Sequence record: NZ_CP064874.1
Length of the DNA stretch: 64,000 nucleotides
Origin: a plasmid
Direction: 5' to 3' (one strand)
In this document: piece by piece, positions 9,045-41,608 of the stretch
Numbering within the stretch: position 1 is the stretch's first letter
How the letters are laid out: each line of letters opens with the position of its first letter
Notes under the pieces: generated by a model
Told to the model about the DNA's origin: nothing
The model's input: only the letters and a program-made list of their open reading frames with translations
Databases searched by the model: none
Translations under genes and position numbers: made by a program

Positions 9045-10448
9045 CTAGAGGAGTGCTGAGTCGACGCGGCAGCACTTCTGCTGCGCATAGGGGCGTTCAC
9101 TCAGCGGCATCCAACCCGGTTCCCTTCGCCGAATGAGCCGGGGATGCCCGGCTTCCCCCTCCGTGGTCATGTGGGGGCCGGCGTTGGTCCAGCAGTTCTG
9201 CGCGCGCGTCTCGCACCACAGCGCGAGCCGCGCTTCGCGGGGGAGGCAGGCACGATGTGTCCACCAGGCGCGCTTCTCGCCGTAGGGTCCGAACTGGTGG
9301 CCCTCGCTGTGCGCGATCGCGTCGTGGACGGCGCGGAAGACGTCGTTGGCGAGCATCGGCGCCCGCTCGCCCGTGGGCAGGGTGACCGTAACGCTGCGAG
9401 CCATCGGATGATCCGGCGGAAGGGCCCCCTCGCTGTGCTGCGAGACCTCGGTGCGGAAGTAGAACAGGTGCTTGTTCTCGCGGAGATCGGCCAGCATCGC
9501 GGCAGAGTCGGCGTAGGGTTGCTCGGTCTCGCCGTGCCAGGGCTCGAAGGTGTAGCCGGCTTCTGTGAGCATGTCCCACTGAGCGCCGATGTGCTGCCGC
9601 AGTGATCGGTAGGAGCGGGCGACCTGCGGGTGCGCGGGCTCGTGCGGTGCGGCCGCGTATGCCCTCGCTGCAGCGATGTCGTCGAGCTCGGTCAGTCGGG
9701 GGATCGGCGTGCGCTGTGGGAAACCGTGCGCATCGGCGTACCGCTCTCTGAGCGACTGGATCTCCTTGATCGGCTGGTGGTGACGGTAGCTGTCGTTGCC
9801 GGGCACGAAGGCAACGTGCGCTCGAGCGAAGGTGGGTTCTGTTCCGAGACGGGCGGCGATCGCGTTCACGGCGGATGCCGGCAGCGGATACTCGGCGGGT
9901 TCCGCGATCTCGAGCTTGCCGTCATAGAGCCTGCCTCCCGGTGCGCCGGCGGCGCGGAGAATGTCGAGGGTCTCCTGGACCTGCTGCTGCGAGCCGGTGC
10001 CGGCGGCGAAGCTGTAGACCCGGTCGGGGCCGTCAGCGTCGAAGTACCCGGCCATGATGCTGTCCTGCTCATACCGCCCCGCCAGCTCGCCGGCCCAGTC
10101 GGTGACCTGCTCGAAGCTGTCCGCGTGGACGATGTAGGCGCCTGCAGGCTCCGACGTGCCCTCCCAGAGCCCGTCCGCGTGCTGCAGCTCGGAGATCTCG
10201 ATCCCGTGACGTTCCGCGGCCGCGCGCAGGGTGTCTTCGTACTCGATCCACTCGTCGGTGTCCCAATAGCTGGGGCGCGAGCTCATCCGCATCAGCTCGC
10301 CCGAGACCGGCCGGAACGGGGTCGCGCCGATGAAGGCCTCAAGCTGCTTCTCGGCGTTCCGCTCGCGCTTCTCGGCGCGGCGACGCCGCTGCCCTTCGGC
10401 CGTCGACGACGGGCACCGCCGCCCTCCGTGGTCGATGTCGTCGCACAT
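9045..10448 (-). CDS. hypothetical protein (467 aa)
   Basis: ORF 9045..10580 trimmed to MCDDIDHGGRRC at 10448 (RBS GGGAGAGG); no recognisable domain. Confidence 0.5.
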   Translation of the reverse strand: MCDDIDHGGRRCPSSTAEGQRRRRAEKRERNAEKQLEAFIGATPFRPVSGELMRMSSRPSYWDTDEWIEYEDTLRAAAERHGIEISELQHADGLWEGTSEPAGAYIVHADSFEQVTDWAGELAGRYEQDSIMAGYFDADGPDRVYSFAAGTGSQQQVQETLDILRAAGAPGGRLYDGKLEIAEPAEYPLPASAVNAIAARLGTEPTFARAHVAFVPGNDSYRHHQPIKEIQSLRERYADAHGFPQRTPIPRLTELDDIAAARAYAAAPHEPAHPQVARSYRSLRQHIGAQWDMLTEAGYTFEPWHGETEQPYADSAAMLADLRENKHLFYFRTEVSQHSEGALPPDHPMARSVTVTLPTGERAPMLANDVFRAVHDAIAHSEGHQFGPYGEKRAWWTHRACLPREARLALWCETRAQNCWTNAGPHMTTEGEAGHPRLIRRREPGWMPLSERPYAQQKCCRVDSALL

Positions 10449-10469
10449 GGCCTCTCCCGTTCGTCTGCT

Positions 10470-10503
10470 GGGTATAGGCCGGGGTTGGGGGTGTTCGCGG
10501 ACA
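10470..10503 (-). promoter_or_regulatory. motif-2 copy b
   Basis: plus strand GGGTATAGGCCGGGGTTGGGGGTGTTCGCGGACA, preceded (in transcript sense) by hairpin 10510-10537. Confidence 0.55.
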
Positions 10504-10558
10504 GAAATCGGGGCCCCGCCGGTCGGCAGGGCCCCGATGAGGGCGGCATGGTCAAACG

Positions 10559-10687
10559 TCAGCCGTTGAGCTCCTCCCACACCTGGTAGGCGCGGTGAAA
10601 CTCCGGGCTGTCATCGTCGCCGTCACGCACGAGCTGGTCGAGGTACTCGTCGAGCTCAGCCTGGGAGAGCTGGCGGGGATCCTTCAT
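10559..10687 (-). CDS. small acidic hypothetical protein (42 aa)
   Basis: MKDPRQLSQAELDEYLDQLV... in-frame tail of ORF 10559..11065; 4-bp overlap with upstream gene end. Confidence 0.3.
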   Translation of the reverse strand: MKDPRQLSQAELDEYLDQLVRDGDDDSPEFHRAYQVWEELNG

Positions 10688-10962
10688 CCTTCGGCTCCCG
10701 CCTCGGCAGGCGGGCAACTGCACCGTGCACGCGGCCGCGAACCGTTCCAGTTCCCGACGTAGAACAGCGCGCACGGCCATTCGTGCTCGCCGCGGCGCCG
10801 CAGCCTGGGGACGGTCACCGTGAGCTCGCTGCCCAGGCTCAGCGCGTCCATGATGTCGTCCGCGATGTAGCCGGCCTCCTCGTCCGCCTCGTCCGTGTGC
10901 TGCTGGATCGTGCGCACGATCGTTGCGCGCACGTCCAGCGTGACGGTCGGCGATGCCTCGTT
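10684..10962 (-). CDS. hypothetical protein
   Basis: ORF 10684..11268 trimmed to MNEASPTVTL at 10962 (ATGA overlap with upstream membrane protein gene). Confidence 0.4.
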   Translation of the reverse strand, partial: NEASPTVTLDVRATIVRTIQQHTDEADEEAGYIADDIMDALSLGSELTVTVPRLRRRGEHEWPCALFYVGNWNGSRPRARCSCPPAEAGAEG

Positions 10963-19897: not shown

Positions 19898-19983
19898 GGG
19901 ACTCCAGGCCCGGTAGCCGGGGAACGACTGGGCCCGGCCGGTGAAACCATGCGCCCACTCGGTGAGATCGTCCAGCCGCCCCC

Positions 19984-21495: not shown

Positions 21496-21642
21496 GAAGA
21501 CCACGGCCTGCTCACTCGCACCGTCTACCCCGAGGTTCCCGCTCGCGTGGAGTACGAACTTACTGACCTCGGACACAGCGCAGCCGCCCCGTTGAAGCAT
21601 CTGCGCGACTGGGTTGAACACAACGTCGGAACCGACCAGTAG
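21496..21642 (+). pseudogene. HxlR-family transcriptional regulator C-terminal fragment (5' part removed by IS3 copy 1)
   Basis: In-frame from the IS end: ...VYPEVPARVEYELTDLGHSAAAPLKHLRDWVEHN stop; no start codon. Confidence 0.55.
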
Positions 21643-21656
21643 CGACCCCCTCGGCG

Positions 21657-21779
21657 CTACATCGAGCCAGGAGTCCCGGCCTCCGCGTAATACCGCGTCA
21701 ACACAGACGAGGCGTCGCGGTCGCCGTCACCGGACACGACAGAGTTCAGCAGGTACCGGTACCCGTCACCGGTCGTCAT
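21657..21779 (-). pseudogene. orphan MobF/TraA-type relaxase N-terminal fragment (40 codons)
   Basis: MTTGDGYRYLLNSVVSGDGDRDASSVLTRYYAEAGTPGSM stop; matches the conserved N-terminus of actinobacterial MobF relaxases. Confidence 0.5.
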
Positions 21780-23594: not shown

Positions 23595-23610
23595 AGCTTC
23601 CCCAGGCCTG

Positions 23611-24333
23611 TTAGGCAATGACGGCGTCGAGGGCCCGTGCGAGCCTCTCCGGATGCGTGAGCATCACCAAATGGCTTCCGTCGATCTCGATCGTGCGCGG
23701 ACTATCAAGCCGCCCGGCCGCGGCCTGGTAGATCTCAGCGGGAACGGCCTGGTCCTGAGCGAGGAACACATAACTTGACGGGATGCTGCTCGCCCAGAAC
23801 CGGTCGAGGCGGATCGGCTCATCGGACCAGCCTGCCGGCGCTGGGACGAGCCTCGGCTCGAGCGCGGCGAGCTGCTGCTGCTCGAACGGGGACATGTCCT
23901 GCATAGACGCGGCCCAGAGCTCAGGCGGCATGACGATGGTGTTGTCGTCGGACTGACTCGCAAGCGCCTTCGTCGCTGCGACCAACGGATCGGGGAGCAC
24001 GTCGTTAATGGTCTCGCCGTCGCGCAGCACCCAGGCGTCGACGAAGACGACCCGGCCGATGCGCTCGGGCATCGCCTCAGCGACGAGTTGGATGAGCGGA
24101 CCTCCGCCGCTATGACCGACGAGCACGATGTCGAGCTGGGTGAGCTCTCTTACCTGATCGATCAGATCGCGCGCCATCATGCTCATCGTGACGCCGGAGC
24201 GGTCCACGTCACCGTCTTCGAGACCGCGCAGCGTCGGCGCGATCACCTCGTGCCCCATTCTGCGCAATTCGTCGGCGACGCCGTCCCACACCCAGCCGCC
24301 TACCCATCCGCCGTGCACCAGTACGATCTGCAT
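23611..24333 (-). CDS. alpha/beta hydrolase (esterase-like)
   Basis: VLVHGGWVGGWVW ... LVGHSGGG motifs; 8-bp overlap with downstream hydrolase. Confidence 0.7.
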   Translation of the reverse strand: MQIVLVHGGWVGGWVWDGVADELRRMGHEVIAPTLRGLEDGDVDRSGVTMSMMARDLIDQVRELTQLDIVLVGHSGGGPLIQLVAEAMPERIGRVVFVDAWVLRDGETINDVLPDPLVAATKALASQSDDNTIVMPPELWAASMQDMSPFEQQQLAALEPRLVPAPAGWSDEPIRLDRFWASSIPSSYVFLAQDQAVPAEIYQAAAGRLDSPRTIEIDGSHLVMLTHPERLARALDAVIA

Positions 24334-24494
24334 TGATCATCCTCTTCGCATATTTATCTGCTGAGCAGAACTTGTTCCTAACTAGAAGACACAATAGCTT
24401 GCGCGGCGCCAACAGTCCAGCATGGCTCGAGCTCTCTTCAGAACGCGCCGAACGACCCCTGCACCAGGTCGCAGGGGAAAGAGACGACGAGCCT

Positions 24495-24880
24495 TCAGGA
24501 GGTCAGGTCGGCCAGACGTACGGCTGCCTCATCGAGGAGTGCGACGAGGGTCTTCACCTTGCGGGGAGGCAAGCGGAACACCGGGGCAGATGCGTTGATC
24601 GCCAACCGCAGCCCGCTCGCCGAGGGAACGGCCACGGCCACCGAGGCCACGCCCTCCTCGCTCTCCTCCCGGTTCGTTGCATAGCCCTGCTTCGCGACAA
24701 GATCCAGTTGTGCGAGGAGCTCGGTCTTGGTACGGATCGACTGCGGAGTCACCTGTGAGAGTTGCTCGTCGGGGTAGAGACGGTCCAATTGTTCTCGCGG
24801 GAGCTGCGCCAGGAGAACCTTTCCCGTGGAGGTGCAATGGGCCGGCATCTCCTTGCCCAACCGTGAAGCGACTCGCACCG
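24495..24880 (-). pseudogene. IclR-family regulator C-terminal effector-domain fragment (N-terminal HTH missing)
   Basis: GKVLLAQLPREQLDRLYPDEQLSQVTPQSIRTKTELLAQLDLVAKQGYATNREESEEGVASVAV is the IclR C-domain; the upstream in-frame sequence is not HTH-like. Confidence 0.5.
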
Positions 24881-24889
24881 CCGTCGTCG

Positions 24890-25275
24890 GTTCCGCGACC
24901 GGGGTCGTGCCCGACGTGAACCAGATCCAGCTCAGCCCCGACATCGCCCGTACCGTTCCTCGACGCGCGCACGAGGTGCTCGGTATCGTGACCGAGAGCT
25001 GGAGCCCGCTCGGCCGCGGGCCCGAGCTGCGGGAGAACCCGACGATCGTGCAGATCGCGGCGGACGTCGGACGAACGGCGGCACAGGTGGTGCTCCGCTG
25101 GCACGTGCAGCAGGGCCTCGTGCCGGTGCCGAGATCGTCAGACCCCAAACGCCTGGTCGAGAACCTCTCGGTCTTCGACTTCCGCCTTAGCACCGACCAG
25201 ATGGCCACGCTTGCGTCCCTCGACAACGGCGAAGCCGCCGCGCGGGACTCTGACCTGCCCGAGAACGGTCATTAG
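24890..25275 (+). pseudogene. aldo/keto reductase C-terminal fragment (N-terminal half missing)
   Basis: PDVNQIQLSP...SWSPLGRG...TAAQVVLRWHVQQGLVPVPRSSDPKRLVENLSVFDFRLS matches the AKR C-terminus; the fragment abuts the IclR fragment. Confidence 0.55.
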
Positions 25276-25312
25276 TCCACCAAGAACACCAAAATCGTCA
25301 CCGATCTGGTAA

Positions 25313-25504
<192 letters not shown>

Positions 25505-25679
25505 TGATGGCTCGAACGTAGGCGCGATCTGCCTTGCTCGCCTCACCTTCGGCTCGCTCGACAGCCGCGTCCAAACCATCGCGAAGTCGCGTGCACTGCA
25601 GATGGCGGCGAGGGAGAGAGTAAGTTCTGCAGTGTGCCCGATCGGGAACAGGGGGTGGGCTTTAGTACCCCTGCCCGAA

Positions 25680-26114
25680 TTCGCGAAGTCTGGGCCACAG
25701 ATCGCCGCCGACGACGCCGAAGACCCCTACGTCCGCCAGCATGCCGCCGAAGCCCTGCTTGAGATCAACGAAGACCGGAAAGTCAACGGCCGCTACCTCG
25801 CCGTCAAGACCCGACAGAACCTCGCCCGCCTCACCGACTTCGCCGAACACACCCGTCGGTTTCCCTGCCTCTTCCGCCTCGATCAACGCCACCTGTGCAC
25901 CCCTATCAGCGGGAGCGAGGGTCTCGGGAAGCTTCTCAAGCCGACGGGCAACTCGCTCGGCAGTGCTTGCGAATCGGCGGTACGGACGACCCAACTGTTC
26001 GCTCGTGTTGGGGTCCTGGCCGTGCCCCATGAGACGGCGGAGCTGCTCCTCGCTGACCTCACCACCGGGTTCGACGGCGCCAGAAATGTACGCGAGACCC
26101 GATCCGAGCCATGA
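25680..26114 (+). CDS. hypothetical protein, possible HEAT-like repeat (low confidence)
   Basis: Part of ORF 25461..26114 with high GC3; DPYVRQHAAEALLEIN resembles a HEAT/PBS-lyase repeat; the start is uncertain. Confidence 0.25.
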   Translation, partial: FAKSGPQIAADDAEDPYVRQHAAEALLEINEDRKVNGRYLAVKTRQNLARLTDFAEHTRRFPCLFRLDQRHLCTPISGSEGLGKLLKPTGNSLGSACESAVRTTQLFARVGVLAVPHETAELLLADLTTGFDGARNVRETRSEP

Positions 26115-26131
26115 GCCCGGCGGCGTGCTGT

Positions 26132-26449
26132 TCAGTCGTTCAGCCGGTGGAGCCAGTAGCCGGGTTCGCGGCGCTCGTGGGCGTAGGCGAGGATCAGGAT
26201 CGTGTCCGGCTCCACCGTGTAGACGATGCGGTACGGGTATCCGCGAACGGCCTTGCTGCGGATCACGGTGCCATCGTCAGCGGTCGTGAATGGTGGGGCG
26301 GCGTTCGGCCATTGGTCGAGGTCTTTCCGGGCTTGCCTTGCTCGGTCGATGAGCGCAAGGCCGATCCCTGGCTCCTGGTCTTCGTACCAGCGCACGGTGG
26401 CGTCGAACTCCGCGACGGCCTCGGGGTGCTCTCGCTGGGCCAAGGTCAT
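26132..26449 (-). CDS. type II toxin, RelE/ParE family
   Basis: 105 aa; C-terminal YRIVYTVEPDTILILAYAHERREP typical of ParE/RelE; 4-bp overlap with the upstream antitoxin gene. Confidence 0.65.
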   Translation of the reverse strand: MTLAQREHPEAVAEFDATVRWYEDQEPGIGLALIDRARQARKDLDQWPNAAPPFTTADDGTVIRSKAVRGYPYRIVYTVEPDTILILAYAHERREPGYWLHRLND

Positions 26450-26682
26450 GCGGTGAGCAAGGCGCGCAAACGCTCGTAGTGCTCGTCGGCATCCACCAGA
26501 TCGACCGCACCCTCACGCACCTCGGCCAGTCGCCGGGTAGCCTCGGCACGCCAGGCTGCATCGACCTCGCTCTCGTCGTCTGCATCATGGAGGCTTTCGA
26601 GCAGGGCGTTAGCGACGACCGCGCGCTGATCGGCGTCGAGCGCGAGGCCGTCTCGGATCAGAGTTGCGGTGTCGGGTGTCAT
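26446..26682 (-). CDS. putative addiction-module antitoxin
   Basis: ORF 26446..26712 trimmed to MTPDTATLI; small acidic protein upstream of and overlapping the toxin gene. Confidence 0.5.
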   Translation of the reverse strand: MTPDTATLIRDGLALDADQRAVVANALLESLHDADDESEVDAAWRAEATRRLAEVREGAVDLVDADEHYERLRALLTA

Positions 26683-26785
26683 GTATTCAAGTGTACGTCG
26701 AACGGCCGACAATCGCGCTGGGCGTCTGTGGCTCGGGTTGCGGGGCTGCTGTGAACGTCACGCCGACGCGACGTGCTGCTGATGC

Positions 26786-29700
26786 TCATAGGCCGCGTGC
26801 TGGCCCGTCATGTCGCGGGTCGTTGCGCCGCGGGTCGCGTTCGGTCGGCTCGCGGAGTTGCCGTTCGCGTTCGGCGAGTGCTTGCTGCCTTGCTTCGTGC
26901 TCGGCGCGGGTGGTTTCGATCCGTGCGGCGGCGTCGCGGATCGGTAGCGCGCGGAGGTAGTCGGCCTCGGCTCGGAGCGCGGTGGCTTGCTGGTGCGCCT
27001 GTCCTGCTTGCTGTGCTGGGTTCGGCAGTCGCATCCCGACCCGGTGGCGCATCACCGCCTGCGGCCCGTACTCGCTGACCAGCAACGCCCGGCGTTCCTG
27101 CTCGTGCCGCTGCCGCAACTCGTCACGGTCGGCTCGCGCGGCCTCGACGTGCTGGGCGGCGTCGATCACGCGGGGATCGGCCTCGGCGCGACGCTCGGCC
27201 TGTCGTGCCGCCCACTCGGGCAGGGTGTCGGTGGTGCGGGGTGGTTCGCCCCATGTTTCGCGCACCCGTGCCCGAACCGTCCGGGTGTGCTCGCTCGTCT
27301 GGCGGTGCTCCGCGCGGGCCTTGCGCCTGCCGAGCCTGCCGACGGTGGCGAGTCGGCTGCTTGCGGCGGCCTCGCGCTCGACAGCATCGAGATAGGTGGT
27401 GCCGTCTGCCTCGGCCTGCACCGTCAACGGTTCCGCGATTTCGGCACGGATGCGCGCCGCCTCGTCCTCGGCGTGGCGGAGCACGTCGGCGTGCTCGTCG
27501 TCCTCGGTCTTGTGTGTTGCGCGCTGGGCGTCGAACCTGGCAGCGGTCTGCTCCCAGCGTTCCGCCGCACGTTCGGCTCGTTCGGCTTCGGCGGTGAGGC
27601 GGGCGAGTTCTTCGGTGATGAGCTGCACGGGGCCATCGCTGACGAGGCCTTGCACGGCGTCGATGGCTTGGGCGGTGGCGTGGTCGAGGCCACGGTCTGC
27701 CGGGTCGCGTTCCATCGCCTCAACGAACCGCGCCCGCGCATCCGCCATATCAGCGGCGACGACGTGGAGTTGGTTCTGTTGGCGGCCTCTCGTCATGCCG
27801 ACGTAGACGCCTGCCGCGCTCGTCGCCTCCGACAAGGCCGTGTGGGAGGCATCGACGGTTGCGCCTTGGACGCCGTAGGCGGTCGCGGCATACGACAGGT
27901 GCGCCCACTCGCTCACGTACTCGGCGGGGAGGGCGACGGTGCGGCTGTGCTTGCCTCCGCCGCTGACTTCGCGGGCGTAGACGCTGCCCTCGTCGGTCAC
28001 ATGCTGCACGATCCATTGCTGCCGGTTTGCCACGCCGAGGTCGCTGCTGTTCTTCCGGGTCTGGATCAGGTCGCCAGCGCCGATGCTCAGCCCGTCGCTG
28101 CCGGTCGTCGTCATAGTGTCGTCGACCTCGCCGCGCTCGACCCGCCCGGCGCGGATGTGCTCGTTCAGCTCGGTGGCCTCGTCGTTGGTGGCGACGGTGA
28201 TCGCTTCGCCGTCGTGGGCGTGGGCGGTGATGTGCTCGCGGGCCGCTTCCTCGTCGGCATGCAAGGTCACGAGGCCCATCGTGGCGAGTCGGTCGAACAC
28301 GTCGCCGGGGTGCTCCCGGTCACGCATGACCAACGTCAACGCCGCATACTCGGCATCGGTGAACCTGTGGAGTTCGGTCATGTCGTAGGTACGGCCACGA
28401 ATCTGGGCGGCCATGTCGAGCACCCCGCCGCGCCCGACCGCCGGGAGCTGCGCCCGGTCGCCCACGAACGCGACCGACGCGCCTGCCTCGGCGGTGACGG
28501 TCAGCAGAGCGAGGGCGGTGTCCTGGTCGAGCATCCCCGCTTCGTCCACGATCACCCGCTCACCCCGCGACAGCACGGCGTCGTTTGGTGGGCCGGTGTA
28601 GATGTTCCCGGTTGCAGGGTCGGTGTCGCCGGGTGCGAGGCGTGTCCATACGCCGTCCTCGTTCCACCGCCACCCATGCGCATACACGAGCGCCGCGACG
28701 GAGGTTGCGGGCACGCCGAGTTCTTCGTGGGCGACCTGCGCCGCACGCAACGTCGGCGCAACCACCCGCGAGGATCGCCCGTGCTCGGCTGCAACCTCGA
28801 TGGCGACGCCGAGCATGGTGGTCTTGCCTGCGCCCGCCGCGCCCTCGACAATCACGAGCGGGTTGGTCGAGGCGACGGCAGCGGCGGCCACGGTCTGCCC
28901 GGTGTCGAGTCCGGCGGCTTGCGCAGCGTCGGTCACGTCGGGGTGCTTCGGCTCCCGTTCCGGCGTCGCGGCGGTGAGTTGGTCGCGGAGTGCGGTCTCG
29001 GCGGCGACGACGCCAAGGCTGGTGAGGTGGGCGACGTGCTCGGGTTGCACCATGCCCGGCGGCAGCACCGAGAAACAATCCGAGGCGGCGAGTCCGGTGG
29101 CGAGGTCGATGAACTCGCGCAACTCCGCCGGGGTCGCTTGCACGCCTGCCTCGGTGGTGATGCGGGTGACGTGCTCTCGCACGGTGTGCGGTGCCCAGGT
29201 CGATGCAGCCGCCGCGCAGCGATCCAGCGCACGACTGGCGACCTGTTGCACGCTGAGGTCATCCAGCGATGCCGGCGCAACGGTGTCGGGGTGCTGCAAG
29301 CTCTCGGGGTGGTAGCCGGCGTCTCGGAGTTCCTGCTGCCACCACTGCTCGTTCTTCAAGTCCGCCGGTTTCTTGCCGGGCCGCTGGAACGCCCACGCCG
29401 CGTCCTGCATCCGAGCGGTCAACACCGGGCCGGGCGTCTCGCCGGGATGCTTCGCTTGCCACTCGGCCTCCATGCGTTCCAGGTTGCGTCTGATCTGCGC
29501 CGACCGCTTCGACATGACGGCGTTGAACGGCTCCAACTCCACAACCTCACCGCTTACGGGGTCGAGGGTCAGGCCATGCTCGGAGAGCGTGGCGGCGAGC
29601 TGGGGGTGCGCGGCGATCACCGCCGTACCGAGAGCACGGATCGCGCCCTGCTGCTGGAACAACGCCGCCGTGGTCAGCGCCCGCCACTTCCCGCCCGCCC

Positions 29701-30241
29701 ACACCCTCGTGCCAATCTGGAAATGGATATGCCGGTGCGGATCACCCGCACGACTCGTCTTGTGCGTGATCGCGACGGTCTGCATGTGCTCGACCGGCAG
29801 CACCTCCTGCGCGCCGCGCGGCCCCGCCAACGTGACCGAATGCTGACCAAGGAAGTGCTGAATCTCCCGCGCCGCATCCCGCTGCGTCGCGTCCAACGCC
29901 TCGGACACGTCCGGGTGGAGTGCGGCGGCGACCGACAGGCTCTTCGGCGCGTTGATCGTCATCTCCGCGAACAACGGCGACCCCCGACGCACCTTGCCCG
30001 GCTTGCGCGGGGTACCCATCGACTCCCCGGTGTCCGGGTTCACCCAATCGACCCAGGCTTCGTACTCATCCGCCGACAGCGACCGAGCAGCGGTGACCTC
30101 GCCGGTCGCGTCGATCACGGCGTACTCGGCCACGGCCTGGTCTGCGCCGAGGTAGTACTCGTCAGCGCGGGAGCGGTCGGCCTCGACATAGGCGCGCGCG
30201 GCAGCACCGCTGCCGTGGAACAGCTTCACTCCACCCTTCAC
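26786..30241 (-). CDS. MobF-family conjugative relaxase/helicase (TrwC/TraA-like)
   Basis: ORF 26786..30586 trimmed to GTG at 30241 (RBS GGAGG); relaxase motifs INAPKSLS and HRHIHFQIG; helicase Walker A VIVEGAAGAGKTT, Walker B RVIVDEAGML, VFVGDRAQLPAV, GMTRGR. Confidence 0.85.
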   Translation of the reverse strand: MKGGVKLFHGSGAAARAYVEADRSRADEYYLGADQAVAEYAVIDATGEVTAARSLSADEYEAWVDWVNPDTGESMGTPRKPGKVRRGSPLFAEMTINAPKSLSVAAALHPDVSEALDATQRDAAREIQHFLGQHSVTLAGPRGAQEVLPVEHMQTVAITHKTSRAGDPHRHIHFQIGTRVWAGGKWRALTTAALFQQQGAIRALGTAVIAAHPQLAATLSEHGLTLDPVSGEVVELEPFNAVMSKRSAQIRRNLERMEAEWQAKHPGETPGPVLTARMQDAAWAFQRPGKKPADLKNEQWWQQELRDAGYHPESLQHPDTVAPASLDDLSVQQVASRALDRCAAAASTWAPHTVREHVTRITTEAGVQATPAELREFIDLATGLAASDCFSVLPPGMVQPEHVAHLTSLGVVAAETALRDQLTAATPEREPKHPDVTDAAQAAGLDTGQTVAAAAVASTNPLVIVEGAAGAGKTTMLGVAIEVAAEHGRSSRVVAPTLRAAQVAHEELGVPATSVAALVYAHGWRWNEDGVWTRLAPGDTDPATGNIYTGPPNDAVLSRGERVIVDEAGMLDQDTALALLTVTAEAGASVAFVGDRAQLPAVGRGGVLDMAAQIRGRTYDMTELHRFTDAEYAALTLVMRDREHPGDVFDRLATMGLVTLHADEEAAREHITAHAHDGEAITVATNDEATELNEHIRAGRVERGEVDDTMTTTGSDGLSIGAGDLIQTRKNSSDLGVANRQQWIVQHVTDEGSVYAREVSGGGKHSRTVALPAEYVSEWAHLSYAATAYGVQGATVDASHTALSEATSAAGVYVGMTRGRQQNQLHVVAADMADARARFVEAMERDPADRGLDHATAQAIDAVQGLVSDGPVQLITEELARLTAEAERAERAAERWEQTAARFDAQRATHKTEDDEHADVLRHAEDEAARIRAEIAEPLTVQAEADGTTYLDAVEREAAASSRLATVGRLGRRKARAEHRQTSEHTRTVRARVRETWGEPPRTTDTLPEWAARQAERRAEADPRVIDAAQHVEAARADRDELRQRHEQERRALLVSEYGPQAVMRHRVGMRLPNPAQQAGQAHQQATALRAEADYLRALPIRDAAARIETTRAEHEARQQALAERERQLREPTERDPRRNDPRHDGPARGL

Positions 30242-30251
30242 TCTGGCCTCC

Positions 30252-30271
30252 CTCACGAGTCGTCTCGTGAG
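30252..30271 (-). promoter_or_regulatory. hairpin CTCACGAG-TCGT-CTCGTGAG just upstream of the relaxase RBS; candidate oriT/nic-region or regulatory structure
   Basis: 8-bp perfect inverted repeat 11 bp from GTG start; MobF oriT sites typically lie upstream of the relaxase gene. Confidence 0.3.
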
Positions 30272-30468
30272 AGAGGTGCGCACTACGGCCCCGCCGTAAA
30301 ATACGTGCCTCACTGAGATAGGGGGCAGATGACTGATGGAGCCGAGCGTCAGCGCGAGAGCGTCGCACAGAGTGTCGCTGGCAAGAGTTGGCGTCACAAA
30401 GTTCGAGGGAACTTTCGGAGTTCGGTTCGATGAAGTGACTAGTCTTCTCGGCGAACTTCGTGACCTGA

Positions 30469-31053
30469 TTACTGCCCGATGAGTCTTCGGGCAGCGGTGA
30501 CGACGGAGGCACGGCGGCGTGCGTGTTCGGCGTCGCTCTCGGCTCCGGTGATCATGCGGGCGACCTGCGGTACCGCTGACCACCATCCGGCGAGTGAGAG
30601 CACGAGGAACATCAGGTGGTCGGCGTCGAGGTCGCTCGTTACTGTGCCCTTGGCCTGTCCGTCGGTCATGGCGGCGACTTTGTATCCGTAGTATTCGCGC
30701 CGCTCGGCCTCGTCGGGTACTTCGGTGTCGAAGACGAGCCCTTCCCAGCGCATGAGCCTGCCGAGTTCGGGGTGCTCGCGGTGGTAGTCGTAGACGCGCC
30801 CGGCGTAGTCGCCCACGTCCTCGGTTGCGAATGATTCGACGGGCACGTCGCGGGCTACCTTCGCCAGTTCCTCGCGCAGTACGGTGGCGAAAAGTCTGTC
30901 CTTGCCCCCGAAGTGCGTGTAGACGCGCTCCTTGTTCACCCCGGCGGCCTTGGCGATGCGCTCGATGGTCGTGCCGTGCGGCCCGTGCGCGGCGAACTCG
31001 GCCACCGCCGCGTCGAGGATGCGGCGCTTCCTGCCCTCAACATCCCAGCCCAT
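30469..31053 (-). CDS. TetR/AcrR family transcriptional regulator
   Basis: ORF 30469..31230 trimmed to MGWDVEGRKRR (RBS GGGAGGTGG); N-terminal HTH ILDAAVAEFAAHGPHGTTIERIAKAAGVNKERVYTHF. Confidence 0.8.
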   Translation of the reverse strand: MGWDVEGRKRRILDAAVAEFAAHGPHGTTIERIAKAAGVNKERVYTHFGGKDRLFATVLREELAKVARDVPVESFATEDVGDYAGRVYDYHREHPELGRLMRWEGLVFDTEVPDEAERREYYGYKVAAMTDGQAKGTVTSDLDADHLMFLVLSLAGWWSAVPQVARMITGAESDAEHARRRASVVTAARRLIGQ

Positions 31054-31109
31054 CGTTCCCACCTCCCGTCTCGTGCGGTAAACCCAACGCTCACGTTGCG
31101 TCTTCGCGC

Positions 31110-31230
31110 GTCCGGACGGTCCGAGGATCGCGGTGCCGGCACGTTCGACATGCATGACCTGTAGGTCGGAGTATCCGCCCCAGTTCAGGACCTGGACCTT
31201 CTCGATGCGGAACTGCCCATTGATTAGCAT
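31110..31230 (-). pseudogene. JetC (Wadjet SMC-like ATPase) N-terminal fragment, about 40 codons, fused in-frame into the tetR upstream region
   Basis: MLINGQFRIEKVQVLNWGGYSDLQVMHVERAGTAILGPSGRAKTQ resembles the JetC/AAA_23 N-terminus with degenerate Walker A; ATGA overlap with the DUF4194 ORF. Confidence 0.4.
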
Positions 31231-31232
31231 CA

Positions 31233-31649
31233 GGACTCCTCGTCAAGGAGCTGGGCTGAGTTTTCGGTGCCATTCCCGTCATTTGCGGTGGCGCCTGCCC
31301 CGAGCCGGTATGCCGCTTCCAGCCGCGTCAGTTCATCGACACCGACAAGAGGTACCACGACTGGCGAGATCGTGTAGAGGTAGTCGGCGTCAGGGTCCTG
31401 GTTGAGCAGCCGCAGATCCTGCAGCTGCCGGATGGCGGCGGTGACGCGACGATCGAACTTCGCCTGGTCGCCGTCGTCATCCTGGCGGTAGGCGCTAAGG
31501 AACTCGTCGATCTGAGCCCGGGTGACCACGACGAGCTCGTCCTGGGGGTCGGCGTGGGCGCACTCCTGGCAGAGAAAGATGAGCAGGAACGAGGCGTCGC
31601 GACTGAGCGGGCGATCTTTGCGGAGGATGCGGGGAGTGTCCTCCTCCAT
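31233..31649 (-). pseudogene. JetB (DUF4194) C-terminal fragment, N-terminal part displaced by the ISL3 insertion
   Basis: DRPLSRDASFLLIFLCQECAHADPQDELVVVTRAQIDEFLSAYRQ...acidic tail; 3' part of ORF 31230..32882, whose 5' portion is antisense to the ISL3 transposase. Confidence 0.45.
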
Positions 31650-31664
31650 GATCTGCCGTTTGAA

Positions 31665-33122
31665 GGCTCTTCGGACATTCGGTGGGGGTGAGGCTTGCCG
31701 GGTGGGGTTCGGCGGGTAGGGGTCGAGGTCCCCGAGGATCAGTAGCGCTAACTGTCTGATCTTCACGAGGACCTCGACGTGCTTCACCCTACTTCGGGGT
31801 GCGCTTCCGCGCGCTCTGCCGCTGATCCGTGTTCCCGCTGCGACGTTCTGCTGGGTCTTCCCGATGTCCATGTCGAGCGCGTCGACCGTCGCGACGGGCT
31901 GCTGGTGGTGACGGTCTCGACGCCAGCGGCGCCGACCGGCTGCCCCTCGTGTGGGGTCGTCGCGACCGGCCGCGGACGCCGTCGACGGGTGCTTCATGAT
32001 GTGCCCGCGACGACGCGGGTGCGGATCGTATGGCGGCAGCGGGTCTGGCGGTGCGACGAGGTGGGATGCGCGCGGCGGACGTTCGTGGAGCAGCTCCCGG
32101 GTCTGGTCGCCCGGCGCGGGTCGATCACCACGCGCGCCGTCGGCTGGGCGATCGGGCAGCTGCGCCGCGAGCACGCCACCGTGCACGGTATCGCCCGTCA
32201 GCTCGGCACGTCGTGGAAGACGGTGTGGCGCGCTGTCGAGCCTGAGTTGGAGCGGCTCGCGGCCGACGAGTCCCGATTCGAGAACGTCACCACGCTCGGT
32301 GTCGATGAGCACATCTGGCATCACGTCGACCCCCGCAAGCGCGGTCCGAAGGAGCTTACCGGGATGGTCGATCTGAGCCGCGACGCGGACGGGAAGACGC
32401 GGGCCAGGCTGCTCGACCTGGTGCCGGGCCGCTCCGGGAAGGCCTACGCGTCCTGGCTCGCCGAACGCGGCGAAGCGTTCCGGCAGAACGTGAAAGTCGC
32501 GGCTCTTGACCCGTTCGCCGGCTACAAGACCGCGATCGACGACCAGCTCGAAGACGCCACGGCCGTGCTGGACGCATTCCACGTCGTCAAGCTCGGCACC
32601 GCCGCCGTCGACGAGGTCCGCCGCCGCGTCCAGCAGGACACCCTCGGGCATCGCGGTCGGACCGGCGACCCGCTCTACGGGATCCAGACCATCCTCCGCG
32701 CCGGCGCCGAGAACCTCACCGAGAAGCAGCGGACCAGGCTCGCGGCAGCGATCGAGGCCGACCCCGCGCACGACGAGGTGTTCGTCGCATGGCAGTGCGC
32801 CCAGCAACTGCGTTCCGCCTACCACCAGAAGGACCTCGCCGAGGGCCGCCAGATCGCGGAGAAGGTCGTCGACACATTCCACACCTGCCCGATCCCCGAG
32901 ATCGCCCGCCTCGGCCGCACCCTCCGCCGCTGGCGAGCCGCGTTCCTGGCCTACTTCACGACCGGACGATCATCGAACGGCGGCACTGAGGCCGTGAACG
33001 GGATCATCGAGCTGCACCGCCGCCTCGCCCGCGGCTTCCGCAACCGCGACAACTACCGGCTCCGCATGCTCCTCGCCGCCGGCGGACTCACCCCATGACC
33101 CCCACCGAATGTCCGAAGAGCC
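31665..33122 (+). mobile_element. ISL3-family insertion sequence, copy 1
   Basis: Perfect terminal IRs GGCTCTTCGGACAT ... ATGTCCGAAGAGCC; transposase 31779..33098; no matching 8-bp direct repeats. Confidence 0.8.
31779..33098 (+). CDS. ISL3 family transposase
   Basis: 439 aa; N-terminal zinc-finger/HTH, DDE domain; about 90 percent identical to 52906..54225. Confidence 0.85.
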   Translation: MLHPTSGCASARSAADPCSRCDVLLGLPDVHVERVDRRDGLLVVTVSTPAAPTGCPSCGVVATGRGRRRRVLHDVPATTRVRIVWRQRVWRCDEVGCARRTFVEQLPGLVARRGSITTRAVGWAIGQLRREHATVHGIARQLGTSWKTVWRAVEPELERLAADESRFENVTTLGVDEHIWHHVDPRKRGPKELTGMVDLSRDADGKTRARLLDLVPGRSGKAYASWLAERGEAFRQNVKVAALDPFAGYKTAIDDQLEDATAVLDAFHVVKLGTAAVDEVRRRVQQDTLGHRGRTGDPLYGIQTILRAGAENLTEKQRTRLAAAIEADPAHDEVFVAWQCAQQLRSAYHQKDLAEGRQIAEKVVDTFHTCPIPEIARLGRTLRRWRAAFLAYFTTGRSSNGGTEAVNGIIELHRRLARGFRNRDNYRLRMLLAAGGLTP

Positions 33123-33221
33123 AGTTGCCGGCACCGGGGGAGAGGGGCCCAGCGCTAGGGCGTGTTGATCAAGAAGGTGCGGGGTGGCCAGCCGCCGCGA
33201 GTTGCGCGGGAGAATGGGCGT

Positions 33222-33551
33222 GTGAAGATCCAGGTGCTGCATATCGAGGATTGCCCGAATTGGCAGGAGGCGGGCGATCGAGTACGGCTGGTGCTCGACT
33301 CGATCGGACGGGGCGATGTTCCGGTGGAGTTCGTGTTGATCCGCACCGAGGCTGAGGCGGTGAGCTCTGGTTTCGCGGGCTCGCCCACGATTCTTCTGGA
33401 CGGTCAGGACTTGTTCCCGTCCCAGGGGAACACTGCCGACTTGGCGTGCAGGGTCTATCTGACCGAGCGCGGCTTTGCGGGTGCGCCGACGGTGGGACAG
33501 CTTGAGCGCACGCTGCAGGAGCGCGAAGCGCTCAGCGGAGATCGGTCTTGA
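33222..33551 (+). CDS. passenger ORF inside IS5 copy A: thioredoxin-like hypothetical protein
   Basis: GTG start with RBS GGGAGAA; VKIQVLHIEDCPNWQEAG...; located between the IR and the transposase stop, opposite strand. Confidence 0.4.
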   Translation: MKIQVLHIEDCPNWQEAGDRVRLVLDSIGRGDVPVEFVLIRTEAEAVSSGFAGSPTILLDGQDLFPSQGNTADLACRVYLTERGFAGAPTVGQLERTLQEREALSGDRS

Positions 33552-34417
33552 TCCAGATCAGCGCCGCGGCGAGGCTGACGGCGGCTCGGTAGTTGAGGGC
33601 GAGTTTGTCCGAGCGCATCGCGATGCCGCGCCACTGCTTGAGACGGTTGAAGCAGCGTTCTACGACGTTGCGTCCCTTGTAGCGTTCCTTCTGCTTGTCG
33701 CCGAAAGCGATCGGCCGGCCCGGCTTCTTGCGGCGGTGCGCGATCTGGTCGTCCCGCTCGGGGATGGTCGCCGCGATCCTCCGGTCGCGGAGCCAGGCGC
33801 GGTTCGCCCTTGAGGGGTACCCCTTGTCGGCGAGCACCCGGTCGGGGCGGGTGCGGGGGCGGCCCTTCCCGTCGCGGGGAACGCGGATGTTCTCCAGCAC
33901 CGCGCTCATCATCGTGGTGTCGTTGATGTTCCCGGCGGTGATCATCATGCTCAGCGGCCGGCCGCGGCCGTCGCAGACCAGGTGCAGTTTGGTCGTCAGC
34001 CCGCCGCGGGAGCGTCCGATCCCGTGATCAGGCGGCTCGGACCACGGATTCTTGTGATTCGGCACAGCCCCCTGTGTCCCGGGCGAGGGTCGCGCCGTGC
34101 TGATGCACGCGCGCGATCGTGGAGTCGATCGAGACGACCCAGTCGATTTCCCCAGCGGCGTCGGCCTGCTTCTGCACCTCGGTGAGCAGCTTCTGCCAGG
34201 TGCCGTCCCCGGCCCACCGGTTGAACCGCTTGTAGATCGAGTTCCACTTCCCGAACCGTTCCGGAACGTCACGCCACGGCGCACCGGTCCGGTACTTCCA
34301 CGCCATCCCCTCGATAGCGAGCCGGTGATCCGTCCACGGCCGCGACCGACCGGTCACCGTCGGCATCAACGGCTCCATCACGGCCCACACCTCGTCAGAG
34401 ATCTCCTGTCGCGTCAC
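33532..34417 (-). CDS. IS5 family transposase (OrfA 34028-34417 plus OrfB 33532-34284, frameshifted)
   Basis: OrfA MTRQEISDEVWAVMEPLMP (DUF4096-like); OrfB DDE C-terminal (ADKGYPSRANRAWLRDRRIAATIPERDDQ). Confidence 0.8.
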
Positions 34418-34465: not shown

Positions 34466-34861
34466 CTAGGCGGAGGCCTTCGCCTTGGCTTTCTCGATCT
34501 GATAAACCCGCTGCTTGCTGATCCCGAGTACGCGGCCGACGTCGGGGGCGGAGTACTTCTCGTTCCTGAGCGCGGTTACCACGGCGCGGCGACGCTCCGC
34601 GGCGCGGGCCTGAGCCCGACGCGCCTCAGCTTCGTCCTTCTCCGCCTGTGCCCACTCGTCGAGCAGCTGCTTAGGGGCGCGCACGTCGACGGTGACGGCC
34701 ACCTCGGCGGGGTCGACGTTGAGCCACATCGCAGCGACACCCTGGGCCTCGCGATCTACCTCGTCGAGAGAGGCTGCCTGCCCTCCGGTGCCGAGTTCGG
34801 GGATCTCGAACACCCACCAACGGCCTTCGCGCTCGACGCTGACGGCGAATGTCTGTGTCAT
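34466..34861 (-). CDS. hicB: HicB-family antitoxin with C-terminal HTH
   Basis: ORF 34466..35017 trimmed to MTQTFAVSVEREGRWWVFEIPELG (RBS GAGGGAGGA); RNase H-like HicB fold signature; C-terminal ribbon/HTH. Confidence 0.65.
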   Translation of the reverse strand: MTQTFAVSVEREGRWWVFEIPELGTGGQAASLDEVDREAQGVAAMWLNVDPAEVAVTVDVRAPKQLLDEWAQAEKDEAEARRAQARAAERRRAVVTALRNEKYSAPDVGRVLGISKQRVYQIEKAKAKASA

Positions 34862-34874
34862 CGCGTCCTCCCTC

Positions 34875-35084
34875 TCACTTCCAGGCCTGGGGGAGTGTCG
34901 CCCCGGCCCTCTCGATCTGTCGCAGCACGCCCGCTGAGACTTCCTTGTGCCCTGCCGGGATCGAGGCTTTCTGCGACTCGTCGGGCAGGCCCCATAGTTC
35001 GTGGCTACCCTGACCATCGCGCAGATAGACCCAGCCGATGCTCTTCAGGTGCTTCAGCACGTCTCGCGTTCGCTGTGCTTTCAT
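34875..35084 (-). CDS. hicA: HicA mRNA-interferase toxin
   Basis: 69 aa; MKAQRTRDVLKHLKSIGWVYLRDGQGSHELWGLPD typical HicA. Confidence 0.7.
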   Translation of the reverse strand: MKAQRTRDVLKHLKSIGWVYLRDGQGSHELWGLPDESQKASIPAGHKEVSAGVLRQIERAGATLPQAWK

Positions 35085-35770: not shown

Positions 35771-35810
35771 ACGGCCTCCGAGACCGGCGGAGAGTCAATA
35801 TTGAGGGTTG

Positions 35811-36900
35811 CGCTATTCGCAAGCACGCGTCGATCCGCTCATGCCTTTGAGCGACAGCTAGCTGTATGAGGCCATGACGTTGCTGACTCGCGTCGGTGTC
35901 GCAGAGGCGGGCGGTTGCCCGTCGTGAGCGCCGTGGGGACGGTGATAGTTGTAGTGCCGGTTCCACACTTCGAGCGCGGCAGCGCGTTCGGCTTCTGAGC
36001 GCCAGATGCGCGCGTAAAGAAACTCTTCGGCGAGGATCCGGTTGTAGCGCTCGACTTTGCCGTTGTGTCGAGGCGTGTATGGCGTGATGCGCTGGTGTCG
36101 ACTGTTCCCGACTGCGTCGTGGAAAGCTGCGGATCGGTAGCAGGAACCGTTGTCGGTCACGACCCGCTCGATCCCGGCGATGCCGTGCTTGGCGAACCAA
36201 GCTCTTGCACGTCCGAGGAACGCGACGGCAGTGGCGGCTTTCTCGTCCGGCAACGCTTCGGTGTACGCGAGTCGGGTGTGCCCGTCGATGGCCGAATGCA
36301 GGTAGACGTACCCAGTCTTCGTACCCCGGGTCTTCTGACGTGCGACAGCTTTGGCTTTCTCGCTGCCTTTGCCGTGCACACGCCACCCGCCGCCATCAGG
36401 GATACGACCGACCTTCTTCACGTCCAGGTGCACCATGTGGCCGGGACGTTTGGTGGTGATGCGTTGCGGTTCCCGATTCAACTCGCCGTTGGGGTCAATA
36501 TACTTGCGCTGGTTCAGGCCCAGCTGCGCGAGGAGCCGGGTGATGGTGCGACGACTGACCGGTGTTCCTGCTTGCTCGAGCTCGAATGCGATACGGGACG
36601 CTGGCCATTTCTGTTCTCGTCGCATTGACTCGATCTGCTCCACGAGGCGGCCAGGCGTTGCAGATGGTTGACGGATCGGCGACGACGAGCGGTCCTGTAG
36701 ACCGAGCTTCCCGAATCGTTTGTATCTGTTGACCCATTTCGAGGCGGTCGCGCGGGAGATCCCCATCTCTGCGGCAACATGAGAAATAGGTCGAGTCCGA
36801 CAGCGCGCGACGAGTCGACGACGACCTTCGACCGTCAGTGGCGAATTTGCGTGCGTCACTTGACCACCTCGCTCTCGACGGGTGCAATCAGCCGAATAAG
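35811..36900 (-). mobile_element. IS481-family insertion sequence
   Basis: Transposase 35858..36859; imperfect terminal IRs (GCTATTCGC..CACGCGTCGA / CTTATTCGG..CACCCGTCGA); left end lies inside the 3' end of the MFS gene. Confidence 0.65.
35858..36859 (-). CDS. IS481 family transposase
   Basis: GTG start VTHANSPLTVEGRRRLV (typical IS481 N-terminus), HTH plus rve DDE domain (YLHSAIDGHTR ... TDNGSCY ... NGKVERYN). Confidence 0.8.
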   Translation of the reverse strand: MTHANSPLTVEGRRRLVARCRTRPISHVAAEMGISRATASKWVNRYKRFGKLGLQDRSSSPIRQPSATPGRLVEQIESMRREQKWPASRIAFELEQAGTPVSRRTITRLLAQLGLNQRKYIDPNGELNREPQRITTKRPGHMVHLDVKKVGRIPDGGGWRVHGKGSEKAKAVARQKTRGTKTGYVYLHSAIDGHTRLAYTEALPDEKAATAVAFLGRARAWFAKHGIAGIERVVTDNGSCYRSAAFHDAVGNSRHQRITPYTPRHNGKVERYNRILAEEFLYARIWRSEAERAAALEVWNRHYNYHRPHGAHDGQPPASATPTRVSNVMASYS

Positions 36901-38037
36901 CGGAACTGCGAGCAGCAGTGCCGTGGTGGTCGCGAGCGCGGCTACCCAAACGGGTCCGAGCGCGCCCGGCATGACGCTGAGTGCGGCGGAGGCGAGCACG
37001 GGACCGGCGGCCGCGCCAACGTTGAGTGCCGCTGTCGCGTATGACCCTGCCATGGTGGGTGCACTCGCCGCGGCATAGAGCACTCGTGTGATCAGCGTGC
37101 TCCCGACGGCGAACCCCACCACACCCTGAGTGAATACGAGCCCGAGCAGGGCAACGGGGTTCGTTGCAAAGAGGGCCAGCGCGACCCACCCGAGCACCAG
37201 AACGCTGCCACCACCGACGATGACGATCCTGGGTCGGGCATCCGAGAGTCGTCCCGCAACGGTGACGCCGATGAAGGAGCCGACGCCGAAGAGCACAAGG
37301 GCCAGCGGTACCCACCACTGGCTCAGGCCGGCGGTGTCCGTAACGATCGGCGCGAGATAGGTGAGCGTGGCGAAGGTGCCGGCATTCACCAGGGCAGCGA
37401 GCAGCATCGTTAGAACGAGGCGCGGCGAGGACAGCTGCGCCAGTTCCACACGCAGCGAGGTCGAGGACGACTCCTCCCTTGACGAGTCGTGAACTTGAGT
37501 GTTGAAGCCCGCGGCAATGCCGATCGCAGCGGGGACGCAGAGAAGAGCGATCGCCCAGAACGTCGACTGCCAGCCGAGTGCCGTTCCAAGCAGTGCACCG
37601 GCGGGGACGCCGGCGACGGTGGCGACGGTGGTACCCGCCAGCAGAACCGCCACGGCCCGCCCTTTGGCATCGGGTGCTACGAGTCTCGTCGCCGCACCCA
37701 AAGCGACCGCCAGGAAGCCTGCATTCACGATCGCCGCGATCACGCGCGTGATGAACAGAACCGTGAAATCCGGCGTAAGTGCCCCGACGACGTGGGATAG
37801 CGCGAATACGATCGCGCAACCCAGGAGTGTCGCCTTCACGGGGAGGTGACGAGTGAGCGCGGCCATCGCCGGTGCACCGATCACCATCCCTGCGGCGAAC
37901 GCCGATGTCAGGAGACCAGCGGTCCCCACGGAAACGCTGAAGTATGTGGAGATGTCGGGCACGAGGCCGGCGAGCATGAATTCGGAAGTACCCATGGCGA
38001 AGACCACCAGGGCAAGAAGATAGAGAGCGAAAGGCAT
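36856..38037 (-). CDS. MFS transporter; the last about 15 codons and the stop are supplied by the IS481 end
   Basis: ORF 36856..38139 trimmed to MPFALYLLALVV; 12 predicted TM helices; stop TGA overlaps the IS481 transposase GTG (GTGA). Confidence 0.7.
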   Translation of the reverse strand: MPFALYLLALVVFAMGTSEFMLAGLVPDISTYFSVSVGTAGLLTSAFAAGMVIGAPAMAALTRHLPVKATLLGCAIVFALSHVVGALTPDFTVLFITRVIAAIVNAGFLAVALGAATRLVAPDAKGRAVAVLLAGTTVATVAGVPAGALLGTALGWQSTFWAIALLCVPAAIGIAAGFNTQVHDSSREESSSTSLRVELAQLSSPRLVLTMLLAALVNAGTFATLTYLAPIVTDTAGLSQWWVPLALVLFGVGSFIGVTVAGRLSDARPRIVIVGGGSVLVLGWVALALFATNPVALLGLVFTQGVVGFAVGSTLITRVLYAAASAPTMAGSYATAALNVGAAAGPVLASAALSVMPGALGPVWVAALATTTALLLAVPLIRLIAPVESEVVK

Positions 38038-38604
38038 CGAGATAGCTCCGAAGCGAGAGTACGAACAAGAGAACGTCTCGTCACCACGGTCAGCGCCCAG
38101 AGGGCACCCGGATGCCGTGCTGCGCGCAGCACTGGGCAACAGAGAGCTAAGGGCTCAGCGGAGGTGAGGGGCTGACGGCGTGACCGAAAGCCCCTGAGTG
38201 TCCGATTCAGGGCTCGACATACCGCTCACCTTACCTGGCTGCGCCGCCAGCCCCAAGAAGTGTCAACAACCTCCTGGCCAGCAACAGCTAGCAGATCGTC
38301 GTCCGCCGAGTGTGGTGGGCTTGTACCTCTCCTCTGTTGCGGAGATCTCCGGGCAGGCGCGTCCCGCTGACGAGAGCCACAAACTCCAGGCGGAGTCTCT
38401 TCGGTGGTTGCTCTGATCACGTCGTTCGATACACTCGGAATGTGCATTTGTACTTCCTGTGACGGCTGAGTAAGGCCTACCGCGCTCGTTGAGTCATCCG
38501 AGCCTGCGGCGGCCGCTCGTTCTCGACCCTGCACGGGTCGCCGTCACCTTGCGCACCCTCGCACGCTTCATAGCCGTGCGGTGCGTCGTTTCCGAAGGAT
38601 ACGA

Positions 38605-41507: not shown

Positions 41508-41608
41508 CCCAGCGCCGCACTGCGTCCCTGATTGTTAGCGTCCTGGAAGGAATTGACTCGGCTTGGAGTTCTCGGGCCGCGGCTGCCTGAACCCACTCCG
41601 ATGTGCCC

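Follow-up and report, generated by a model that had tools for sequence, protein, structure and literature searches.

A 558-bp type I Wadjet (JetABCD) remnant on a large Microbacterium plasmid, a probable scar of insertion sequence-driven rearrangement

The large Microbacterium plasmid analyzed here very probably carries a non-functional relic of a type I Wadjet (JetABCD) system, 558 bp in length, that represents a scar of rearrangement driven by insertion sequences (ISs). In the window, i.e., the whole 64-kb stretch of plasmid DNA that was analyzed, this relic consists of the 3' part of jetB and the first codons of jetC. Type I Wadjet, or JetABCD, is the system known as MksBEFG in Corynebacterium glutamicum and as EptABCD in Mycobacterium smegmatis. 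An earlier note on this DNA had described a degraded Wadjet system; a type I remnant is indeed found between the end of an ISL3 element and the upstream region of a tetR gene, while the proposal that a complete system was inactivated in place is unproven. A literature search on this plasmid returned nothing specific to it.

Identity and limits of the jetB and jetC pieces

The remnant (window positions 31664..31107, minus strand) was matched, by blastn and by base-by-base comparison, to positions 10232..10789 of an intact Microbacterium Wadjet locus (L003) with 558 identities over 558 nt, and this identity extends to the jetB-jetC junction of all of the contigs L003 to L010. The limits of the remnant are hence 31107-31664 rather than 31110-31660 as initially reported. 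The jetB stop codon (31230-32) and the jetC start overlap by 1 nt in the form TGATG, where an ATGA overlap had been read, and 41 jetC codons plus 1 nt, as opposed to 40 codons, are present.

Translation of positions 31664-31233 (minus strand) yields the 144-aa sequence FKRQIMEEDTPR...AQLLDEES, which matches Pfam DUF4194 (E 4.8e-16) over the last two thirds of the profile (positions 48-165 of 165), as well as the PADLOC JetB1 models (best E 2.3e-36), with the match comprising residues 78-221 only; these profile searches bear out the JetB-like C-terminal region proposed previously. In an AlphaFold model of JetB, which is of low confidence (pLDDT 61) and was used for secondary structure and domain order only, residue 78 falls on the final strand of the first (N-terminal) of the two winged-helix domains. 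The jetB remnant is thus predicted, under this model, to have lost most of this first domain together with the N-terminal helix, and to retain the C-terminal winged-helix domain and the acidic tail.

The jetC open reading frame (ORF) begins MLINGQFRIEKVQVLNWGGYSDLQVMHVERAGTAILGPSGR and encodes MLINGQ...GPSGR; its product matches Pfam AAA_29 (E 7e-7) and, at profile positions 13-49 of 1112, PADLOC JetC1 (E 1.7e-11), in agreement with the JetC-like N-terminus that had been recognized. No full-length SMC-type ATPase is encoded, with 41 of the 1136 JetC residues left and the Walker A motif GPSGRGKST cut after GPSGR, by a breakpoint that lies inside codon 42. The residues AKTQRER that follow GPSGR come from foreign tetR-upstream DNA, and the sequence GPSGRAKT, which had been taken for a degenerate P-loop, is therefore a junction artefact.

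Missing from the remnant are JetA, JetD, 96% of JetC, with half of its Walker A motif, and one third of JetB at the N-terminal end. When the 20.7-kb intact Wadjet locus was used as blastn query, jetA, jetD, the remaining part of jetC, and the neighboring genes had no match in the 64-kb window. The place of JetA (the DUF3375 kleisin), upstream of jetB, is occupied by the ISL3 element, and tetR-mobF is found instead of JetD (DUF3322 plus a Toprim-type nuclease) downstream of jetC. That a complete Wadjet lost its function "in this mobile region" can thus not be kept as written, since the rest of the 20-kb Wadjet locus is absent from the window. Coordinates of the remnant and of the features around it are given in Table 1.

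Table 1. Wadjet remnant and surrounding features in the window
Feature	Position	Strand	Details
MobF-family relaxase	26786..30241	-	Pfam TrwC E 4e-38, AAA_30 E 1e-40; 99.97% identical to pNAPH
tetR	30469..31053	-	194 aa; 100% identical to tetR of the Rhodococcus plasmids pNAPH and pLW1
Truncated tetR upstream region	31054..31108	-	Proximal palindrome GCAACGTGAGCGTTG and ribosome-binding site kept
Illegitimate junction	31107..31108	.	2 nt (CG) common to jetC and the tetR-upstream sequence (microhomology)
jetC remnant	31107..31230	-	Codons 1-41 plus 1 nt of the 1136-codon jetC; corresponds to L003 10666-10789 (100%)
jetB remnant	31233..31664	-	Codons 78-221 of the 221-codon type I jetB (KITE subunit, DUF4194)
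ISL3-family IS	31665..33122	+	1458 bp; 24-bp terminal inverted repeats GGCTCTTCGGACATTCGGTGGGGG; transposase ORF 31779-33098
DF-family thioredoxin-like ORF	33162-33551	+	NCBIfam E 1.4e-17, below the curated cut-off
IS5, two-ORF transposase	33532-34417	-	
HicA toxin and HTH partner	34466-35084	-	
IS481-family transposase	35858-36904	-	

Open reading frames cross both edges of the remnant. On the jetB side, a chimeric ORF, in which JetB residues 78-221 are preceded by 41 or 69 residues encoded by the ISL3 end in antisense, has been annotated as a DUF4194 protein in GenBank (QXE31728.1, 185 aa) and in RefSeq (WP_254385474.1, 213 aa); both annotated proteins are located on one 177,760-bp Microbacterium paraoxydans plasmid. 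A longer open frame of 550 aa (31230-32882, minus strand) covers the entire ISL3 transposase gene in antisense and extends into the truncated jetB; this frame is an artefact of high GC content and explains why annotation pipelines call "DUF4194" proteins of 185-213 aa here.

Edges of the remnant and plasmid context

At the upstream edge, one 24-bp ISL3 repeat begins at position 31665, where it abuts jetB exactly at codon 78, and the other repeat ends at 33122, which substantiates the view that the end of an ISL3 copy lies within jetB. The element encodes a DDE transposase (Pfam DDE_Tnp_ISL3, E 2.7e-53; NCBIfam transpos_ISL3, E 4.3e-85) and has terminal inverted repeats, consistent with its assignment to the ISL3 family. 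An 8-bp target-site duplication is absent, as the two flanks read CGTTTGAA and AGTTGCCG; however, a second ISL3 copy in the window (52792-54251, 86% identical) is also not flanked by a target-site duplication, so that a missing duplication alone is weak evidence. DNA on the far side of the ISL3 element is unrelated (a DF-family gene followed by IS5) and does not include the 5' part of jetB.

Two routes to this arrangement were considered and rejected. Recombination between the two ISL3 copies of the window is not compatible with their 86% identity and with the lack of an exchange of flanks, and movement of ISL3 and the 558 bp as one unit into the spacer between tetR and a gene for an MFS transporter is not compatible with the absence of a duplication and with the far side of ISL3, which is not pNAPH spacer sequence. 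Searches for the exact ISL3/jetB junction pattern yielded no matches in either genome_contigs or metagenome_contigs, and the predicted complementary junction (the jetB 5' part joined to the ISL3 end, with a duplication of 0-12 nt allowed) had no matches in metagenome_contigs. Among cluster members, no N-terminal JetB stub that ends at codon 77 was found; stubs with other endpoints were present.

At the downstream edge, identity to jetC reaches down to 31107, and identity to the Rhodococcus pyridinivorans plasmid pNAPH starts at 31108 and continues from there downward at 99.97%; the corresponding identity to plasmid pLW1 of Rhodococcus sp. LW-XY12, from 31078 downward, is 99.9%. The module common to these plasmids, after which catabolic genes are found, comprises tetR and the genes for a MobF relaxase and a toxin/antitoxin pair of the RelE/ParE type, and it has different upstream neighbors in pNAPH and pLW1. 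In pNAPH, the tetR spacer contains the palindromes AATCCAACGTTTCCGTTGGATT and GCAACGTGAGCGTTG, which are followed by a divergent MFS transporter gene; when the window was aligned with both pNAPH and pLW1, it was found to lack this MFS gene as well as the distal palindrome. The two palindromes of the form CAACG...CGTTG are likely TetR operators, and the junction seems to have cut the tetR-mobF genes off from their native promoter. Breakpoints in the tetR spacer differ across plasmids, as seen when window positions 31054-31108 are compared with L001 7900-8060 and L002 7870-8030, being at -55 in the window and at -25 in pLW1, with an intact spacer in pNAPH.

The joint between jetC and the tetR-upstream sequence is located 55 nt upstream of the tetR start codon. 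A tetR fusion had been reported here and, in line with that report, a 253-aa ORF consisting of JetC residues 1-41, an 18-aa linker, and TetR extends without interruption between 31230 and 30469; however, this in-frame joining is incidental and due to chance, as TetR has its own ribosome-binding site (GGGAGGTG) and ATG start codon at 31053. The TetR family protein itself (Pfam TetR_N, E 4.5e-16; TetR_C_21, E 1.1e-33) is identical to WP_024476687.1, which is annotated with 194 aa from the internal ATG on both pNAPH and pLW1. It is most improbable that the chimera represents a new regulator in which an N-terminal extension alters the behavior of TetR: while the frame is open and the apparent loss of the native tetR promoter may mean that transcription comes from upstream, tetR keeps a strong ribosome-binding site and the ATG used for the 194-aa protein on two other plasmids, an in-frame joint has a prior of roughly 1 in 3, and a 41-residue part of an ATPase head with half of a Walker A motif has no plausible fold.

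The remnant is located in an IS-rich accessory region in which ISL3, IS5, IS481, and a HicAB pair are found within approximately 5 kb. Window positions 1883-16399 share 87% identity with a plasmid backbone from Microbacterium in which ArdC and methyltransferase genes occur, and the rest of the window is a mosaic of modules for which matches at 99-100% identity are found on plasmids of Rhodococcus, Gordonia, Glutamicibacter, and Microbacterium. Positions 21497-31108 match the Rhodococcus plasmids pNAPH and pLW1 (hydrolase genes, mobF), and positions 35783-45106 and 48194-54257 match modules of Gordonia and Microbacterium plasmids, all at 99-100%; the matching modules encode an ABC-F protein, a Cmx-type MFS efflux protein, and an integrase in Gordonia YC-JH1, G. 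sihwensis, and M. proteolyticum, and an ABC transporter together with ISL3 copy 2 in a plasmid of M. sediminis. These sequence identities indicate very recent exchange between genera among actinobacteria of soil and sludge. Two IS3-family copies (19980-21495 and 56316-57833), which are 100% identical and directly oriented, bracket the accessory mosaic of approximately 35 kb, and the region between them is a candidate composite transposon.

The intact operon and the origin of the remnant

A protein search with the JetB piece identified a 221-aa DUF4194 protein (P0002; MULTISPECIES [Microbacterium]) that is 100% identical over the piece and is encoded on 285 contigs. In eight contigs encoding this protein, genes for a DUF3375 protein (485 aa), JetB (221 aa), and an SMC-like ATPase follow each other in that order with overlapping stop and start codons, and seven of the eight (L003-L009) encode a full-length ATPase of 1136 aa, followed by a 401-aa protein with DUF3322 and JetD_C domains. 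The proteins encoded by L003 match the PADLOC type I models JetA1 (1e-144), JetB1 (9e-59), JetC1 (5e-203), and JetD1 (6e-83). As jetABCD is carried by L003-L009 as well as by L017-L020, with 100% identity over the remnant, descent of the remnant from a complete four-gene operon is supported. Members of the intact allele cluster are located on contigs of 3.5-3.8 Mb, i.e., on chromosomes. By contrast, no relative of this Wadjet above 34% protein identity was found among the 72,556 plasmids in PLSDB, and searches with the remnant DNA against PLSDB plasmids, in near and distant modes, detected nothing beyond the tetR and ISL3 edges; an orphan JetB of this clade was likewise not found on other PLSDB plasmids.

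In L003 (positions 1-20666), and also in L004-L009 and L017-L020, the intact Wadjet is part of an apparent defence island, in which it adjoins a PDC-S06-like AAA_13 ATPase (PADLOC E 1e-110) and a PIN_12 protein. It is followed by TniQ, TniB, and a product with an HTH that runs off the end of the locus and is possibly a transposase. With this neighborhood, the intact Wadjet, which is almost the same in several Microbacterium species, resembles the cargo of a Tn7-like transposon; transposons of this type are on record as carriers of Wadjet (PMC8649781). Between the genes for the PIN_12 protein and the PDC-S06-like ATPase, the spacer contains a tandem array (L003 5322-5587) of approximately ten 24-nt units with the consensus ACCGCCACCAGGAAGCGTCGACAA and approximately 73% matches.

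With regard to how the remnant arose, the capture of a chromosomal piece alongside ISL3 is slightly favored over decay of a complete system in place, and the remnant may thus have arrived already truncated next to ISL3. Under the capture scenario, the plasmid would have become joined to jetB on a chromosome through an ISL3 copy that either transposed into this gene or recombined with a copy already resident there. The plasmid would then have been freed by imprecise excision, with jetC codon 42 and the tetR spacer recombining illegitimately, and this excision would have taken 558 bp of chromosomal DNA along next to ISL3 while deleting the plasmid MFS gene and the tetR promoter segment. The chromosome would be expected to have been left with a junction of jetA, jetB (codons ~1-77), and ISL3 and, possibly, with a reciprocal joint ...GTAGTAGGCTAAC-CG-GCAAGTCCACCC..., in which a pNAPH-type tetR/MFS spacer would be fused to jetC from codon 42 onward. 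Such a capture would explain the exact joint between the IS end and jetB, the missing duplication, and the microhomology joint, as well as the loss of the MFS gene and the tetR promoter, the 100% identity to chromosomal alleles, and the absence of other Wadjet DNA; it also fits a clade that has no relative above 34% identity on PLSDB plasmids.

Decay in place, which we consider possible although on balance doubtful, supposes that a complete Wadjet, probably together with its Tn7-like carrier, was once present on the plasmid as a weapon against smaller competitors, and that only 558 bp of it were left after ISL3 had inserted into jetB, DNA adjacent to ISL3 had been deleted, and another deletion, or a recombination, had extended into tetR. 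The TniQ, TniB, and transposase genes that adjoin the intact locus, together with the record of Wadjet as Tn7-like cargo, suggest that the locus is mobile, and ISs are dense here, with ISL3, IS5, IS481, and IS3 found within approximately 6 kb. Furthermore, JetABCD restricts circular DNA only up to approximately 100 kb (bioRxiv 10.1101/2022.10.04.510915), so that a 178-kb plasmid could carry Wadjet without targeting itself. On the other hand, the 64-kb window contains no other piece of the Wadjet/Tn7-like locus, no PLSDB plasmid carries a close relative of this Wadjet, and more events are needed than for capture. That the jetBC piece was joined to the plasmid by an assembly error through repeated ISs is very unlikely; the region is repeat-rich, with two ISL3 copies and two identical IS3-family copies, but the jetC/tetR junction is located in unique sequence and not at a repeat, the ISL3 copies share no more than 86% identity, and a deposited record of a complete plasmid shows the same arrangement.

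Function and relation to other cases of Wadjet loss

Wadjet has been shown to require a JetC dimer, the JetA kleisin, a JetB KITE dimer, and the JetD nuclease (bioRxiv 10.1101/2023.11.03.565488). As the remnant has neither JetA nor JetD, a stub of only 41 residues for JetC, and an incomplete JetB, we infer that the relic has no function and would be unable to restrict plasmids, a conclusion that is drawn from missing parts and not from accumulated mutations; the 100% identity to the intact gene indicates a recent event, so that no signal of decay or selection can be read from the remnant.

A role as an anti-Wadjet decoy, in which JetB(78-221), expressed from the ISL3 end, uses its C-terminal winged-helix domain to sequester resident JetA or JetB in a dominant-negative manner and thereby shields plasmids, has very little likelihood. 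This idea draws on an uninterrupted ORF, annotated by NCBI at 185 and 213 aa, on the predicted retention of the C-terminal winged-helix domain, on 100% identity to the chromosomal allele that would have to be bound, and on the geometry of the complex, in which DNA is clamped on the heads of JetC by a JetB dimer (bioRxiv 10.1101/2023.11.03.565488), an arrangement open to dominant-negative interference. Against it, a sigma-70 scan of positions 30900-32000 found no promoter-like site, although such a scan is uninformative for actinobacterial promoters; the first 41-69 residues of the protein stem from the ISL3 end read in antisense; confidence in the structure model is low (pLDDT 61); and there is no conservation signal, with the fragment being too young. 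In addition, no orphan JetB of this clade is found on other plasmids, and a plasmid of 178 kb should, given the size limit cited above, already escape Wadjet. If true, the decoy would represent a plasmid-encoded anti-Wadjet factor born from a captured piece of a defence system.

Compared to known type I Wadjet systems, the remnant resembles its source operon, i.e., JetA (DUF3375), JetB (DUF4194), JetC (SMC-like ATPase), and JetD (DUF3322 with a Toprim-type C-terminal domain), in matching JetB1 and JetC1 and in the order of jetB and then jetC with overlapping stop and start codons. It differs in having 144 of 221 JetB and 41 of 1136 JetC residues, a bisected Walker A motif, and neither JetA nor JetD; it would thus be unable to form the JetA2B4C4 motor or to recruit the nuclease, and is a relic rather than a member of the system.

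Other interruptions of this Wadjet were also observed. In the Microbacterium luteum chromosome CP063814.1 (L011 6364-8030), the same jetB allele is split (147 aa and 99 aa) by a 1667-bp IS of the DDE_Tnp_1 family with a short target duplication, with jetA, jetC, and jetD intact, and this jetB::IS junction recurs in three short metagenome contigs (L012-L014). While the allele is IS-interrupted in both cases, the M. luteum case is a simple insertion with four genes in place, whereas the remnant is plasmid-borne and limited to 558 bp. In a marine-metagenome contig (L010), jetC is interrupted at approximately residue 706 (called product, 726 aa) by an IS3-family IS (12782-14299) that is 100% identical to the two copies in the window; jetD is gone, and everything downstream of the jetC break is replaced by other DNA. 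Further stubs with other breakpoints were found in short metagenomic contigs and may be assembly artefacts. These cases hint that ISs repeatedly knock out Wadjet in this Microbacterium lineage.

Loss of Wadjet has also been linked to plasmid uptake in other bacteria. An eptC mutation in M. smegmatis mc2155, attributed to work by Panas et al. in 2014, is reportedly a spontaneous loss of Wadjet through which plasmid uptake was gained. In spontaneous Clostridium cellulovorans mutants, Wadjet loss improves plasmid uptake (PMC12287153). These mutants and the remnant are alike in that loss of function goes with carrying or accepting plasmids; however, the mutants, in contrast to the plasmid-borne remnant, have chromosomal lesions with a measured phenotype.

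Overall, the remnant is an ordinary pseudogene scar of a well-characterized system, with an ORF already annotated in GenBank and RefSeq. The "DUF4194 domain-containing protein" on this plasmid should be annotated as a pseudogene, and defence-system finders should not count a system here. While of little importance alone, the remnant has modest value as a marker, as it shows that a Microbacterium plasmid has physically exchanged DNA with a Wadjet locus that is otherwise found on chromosome-sized contigs.
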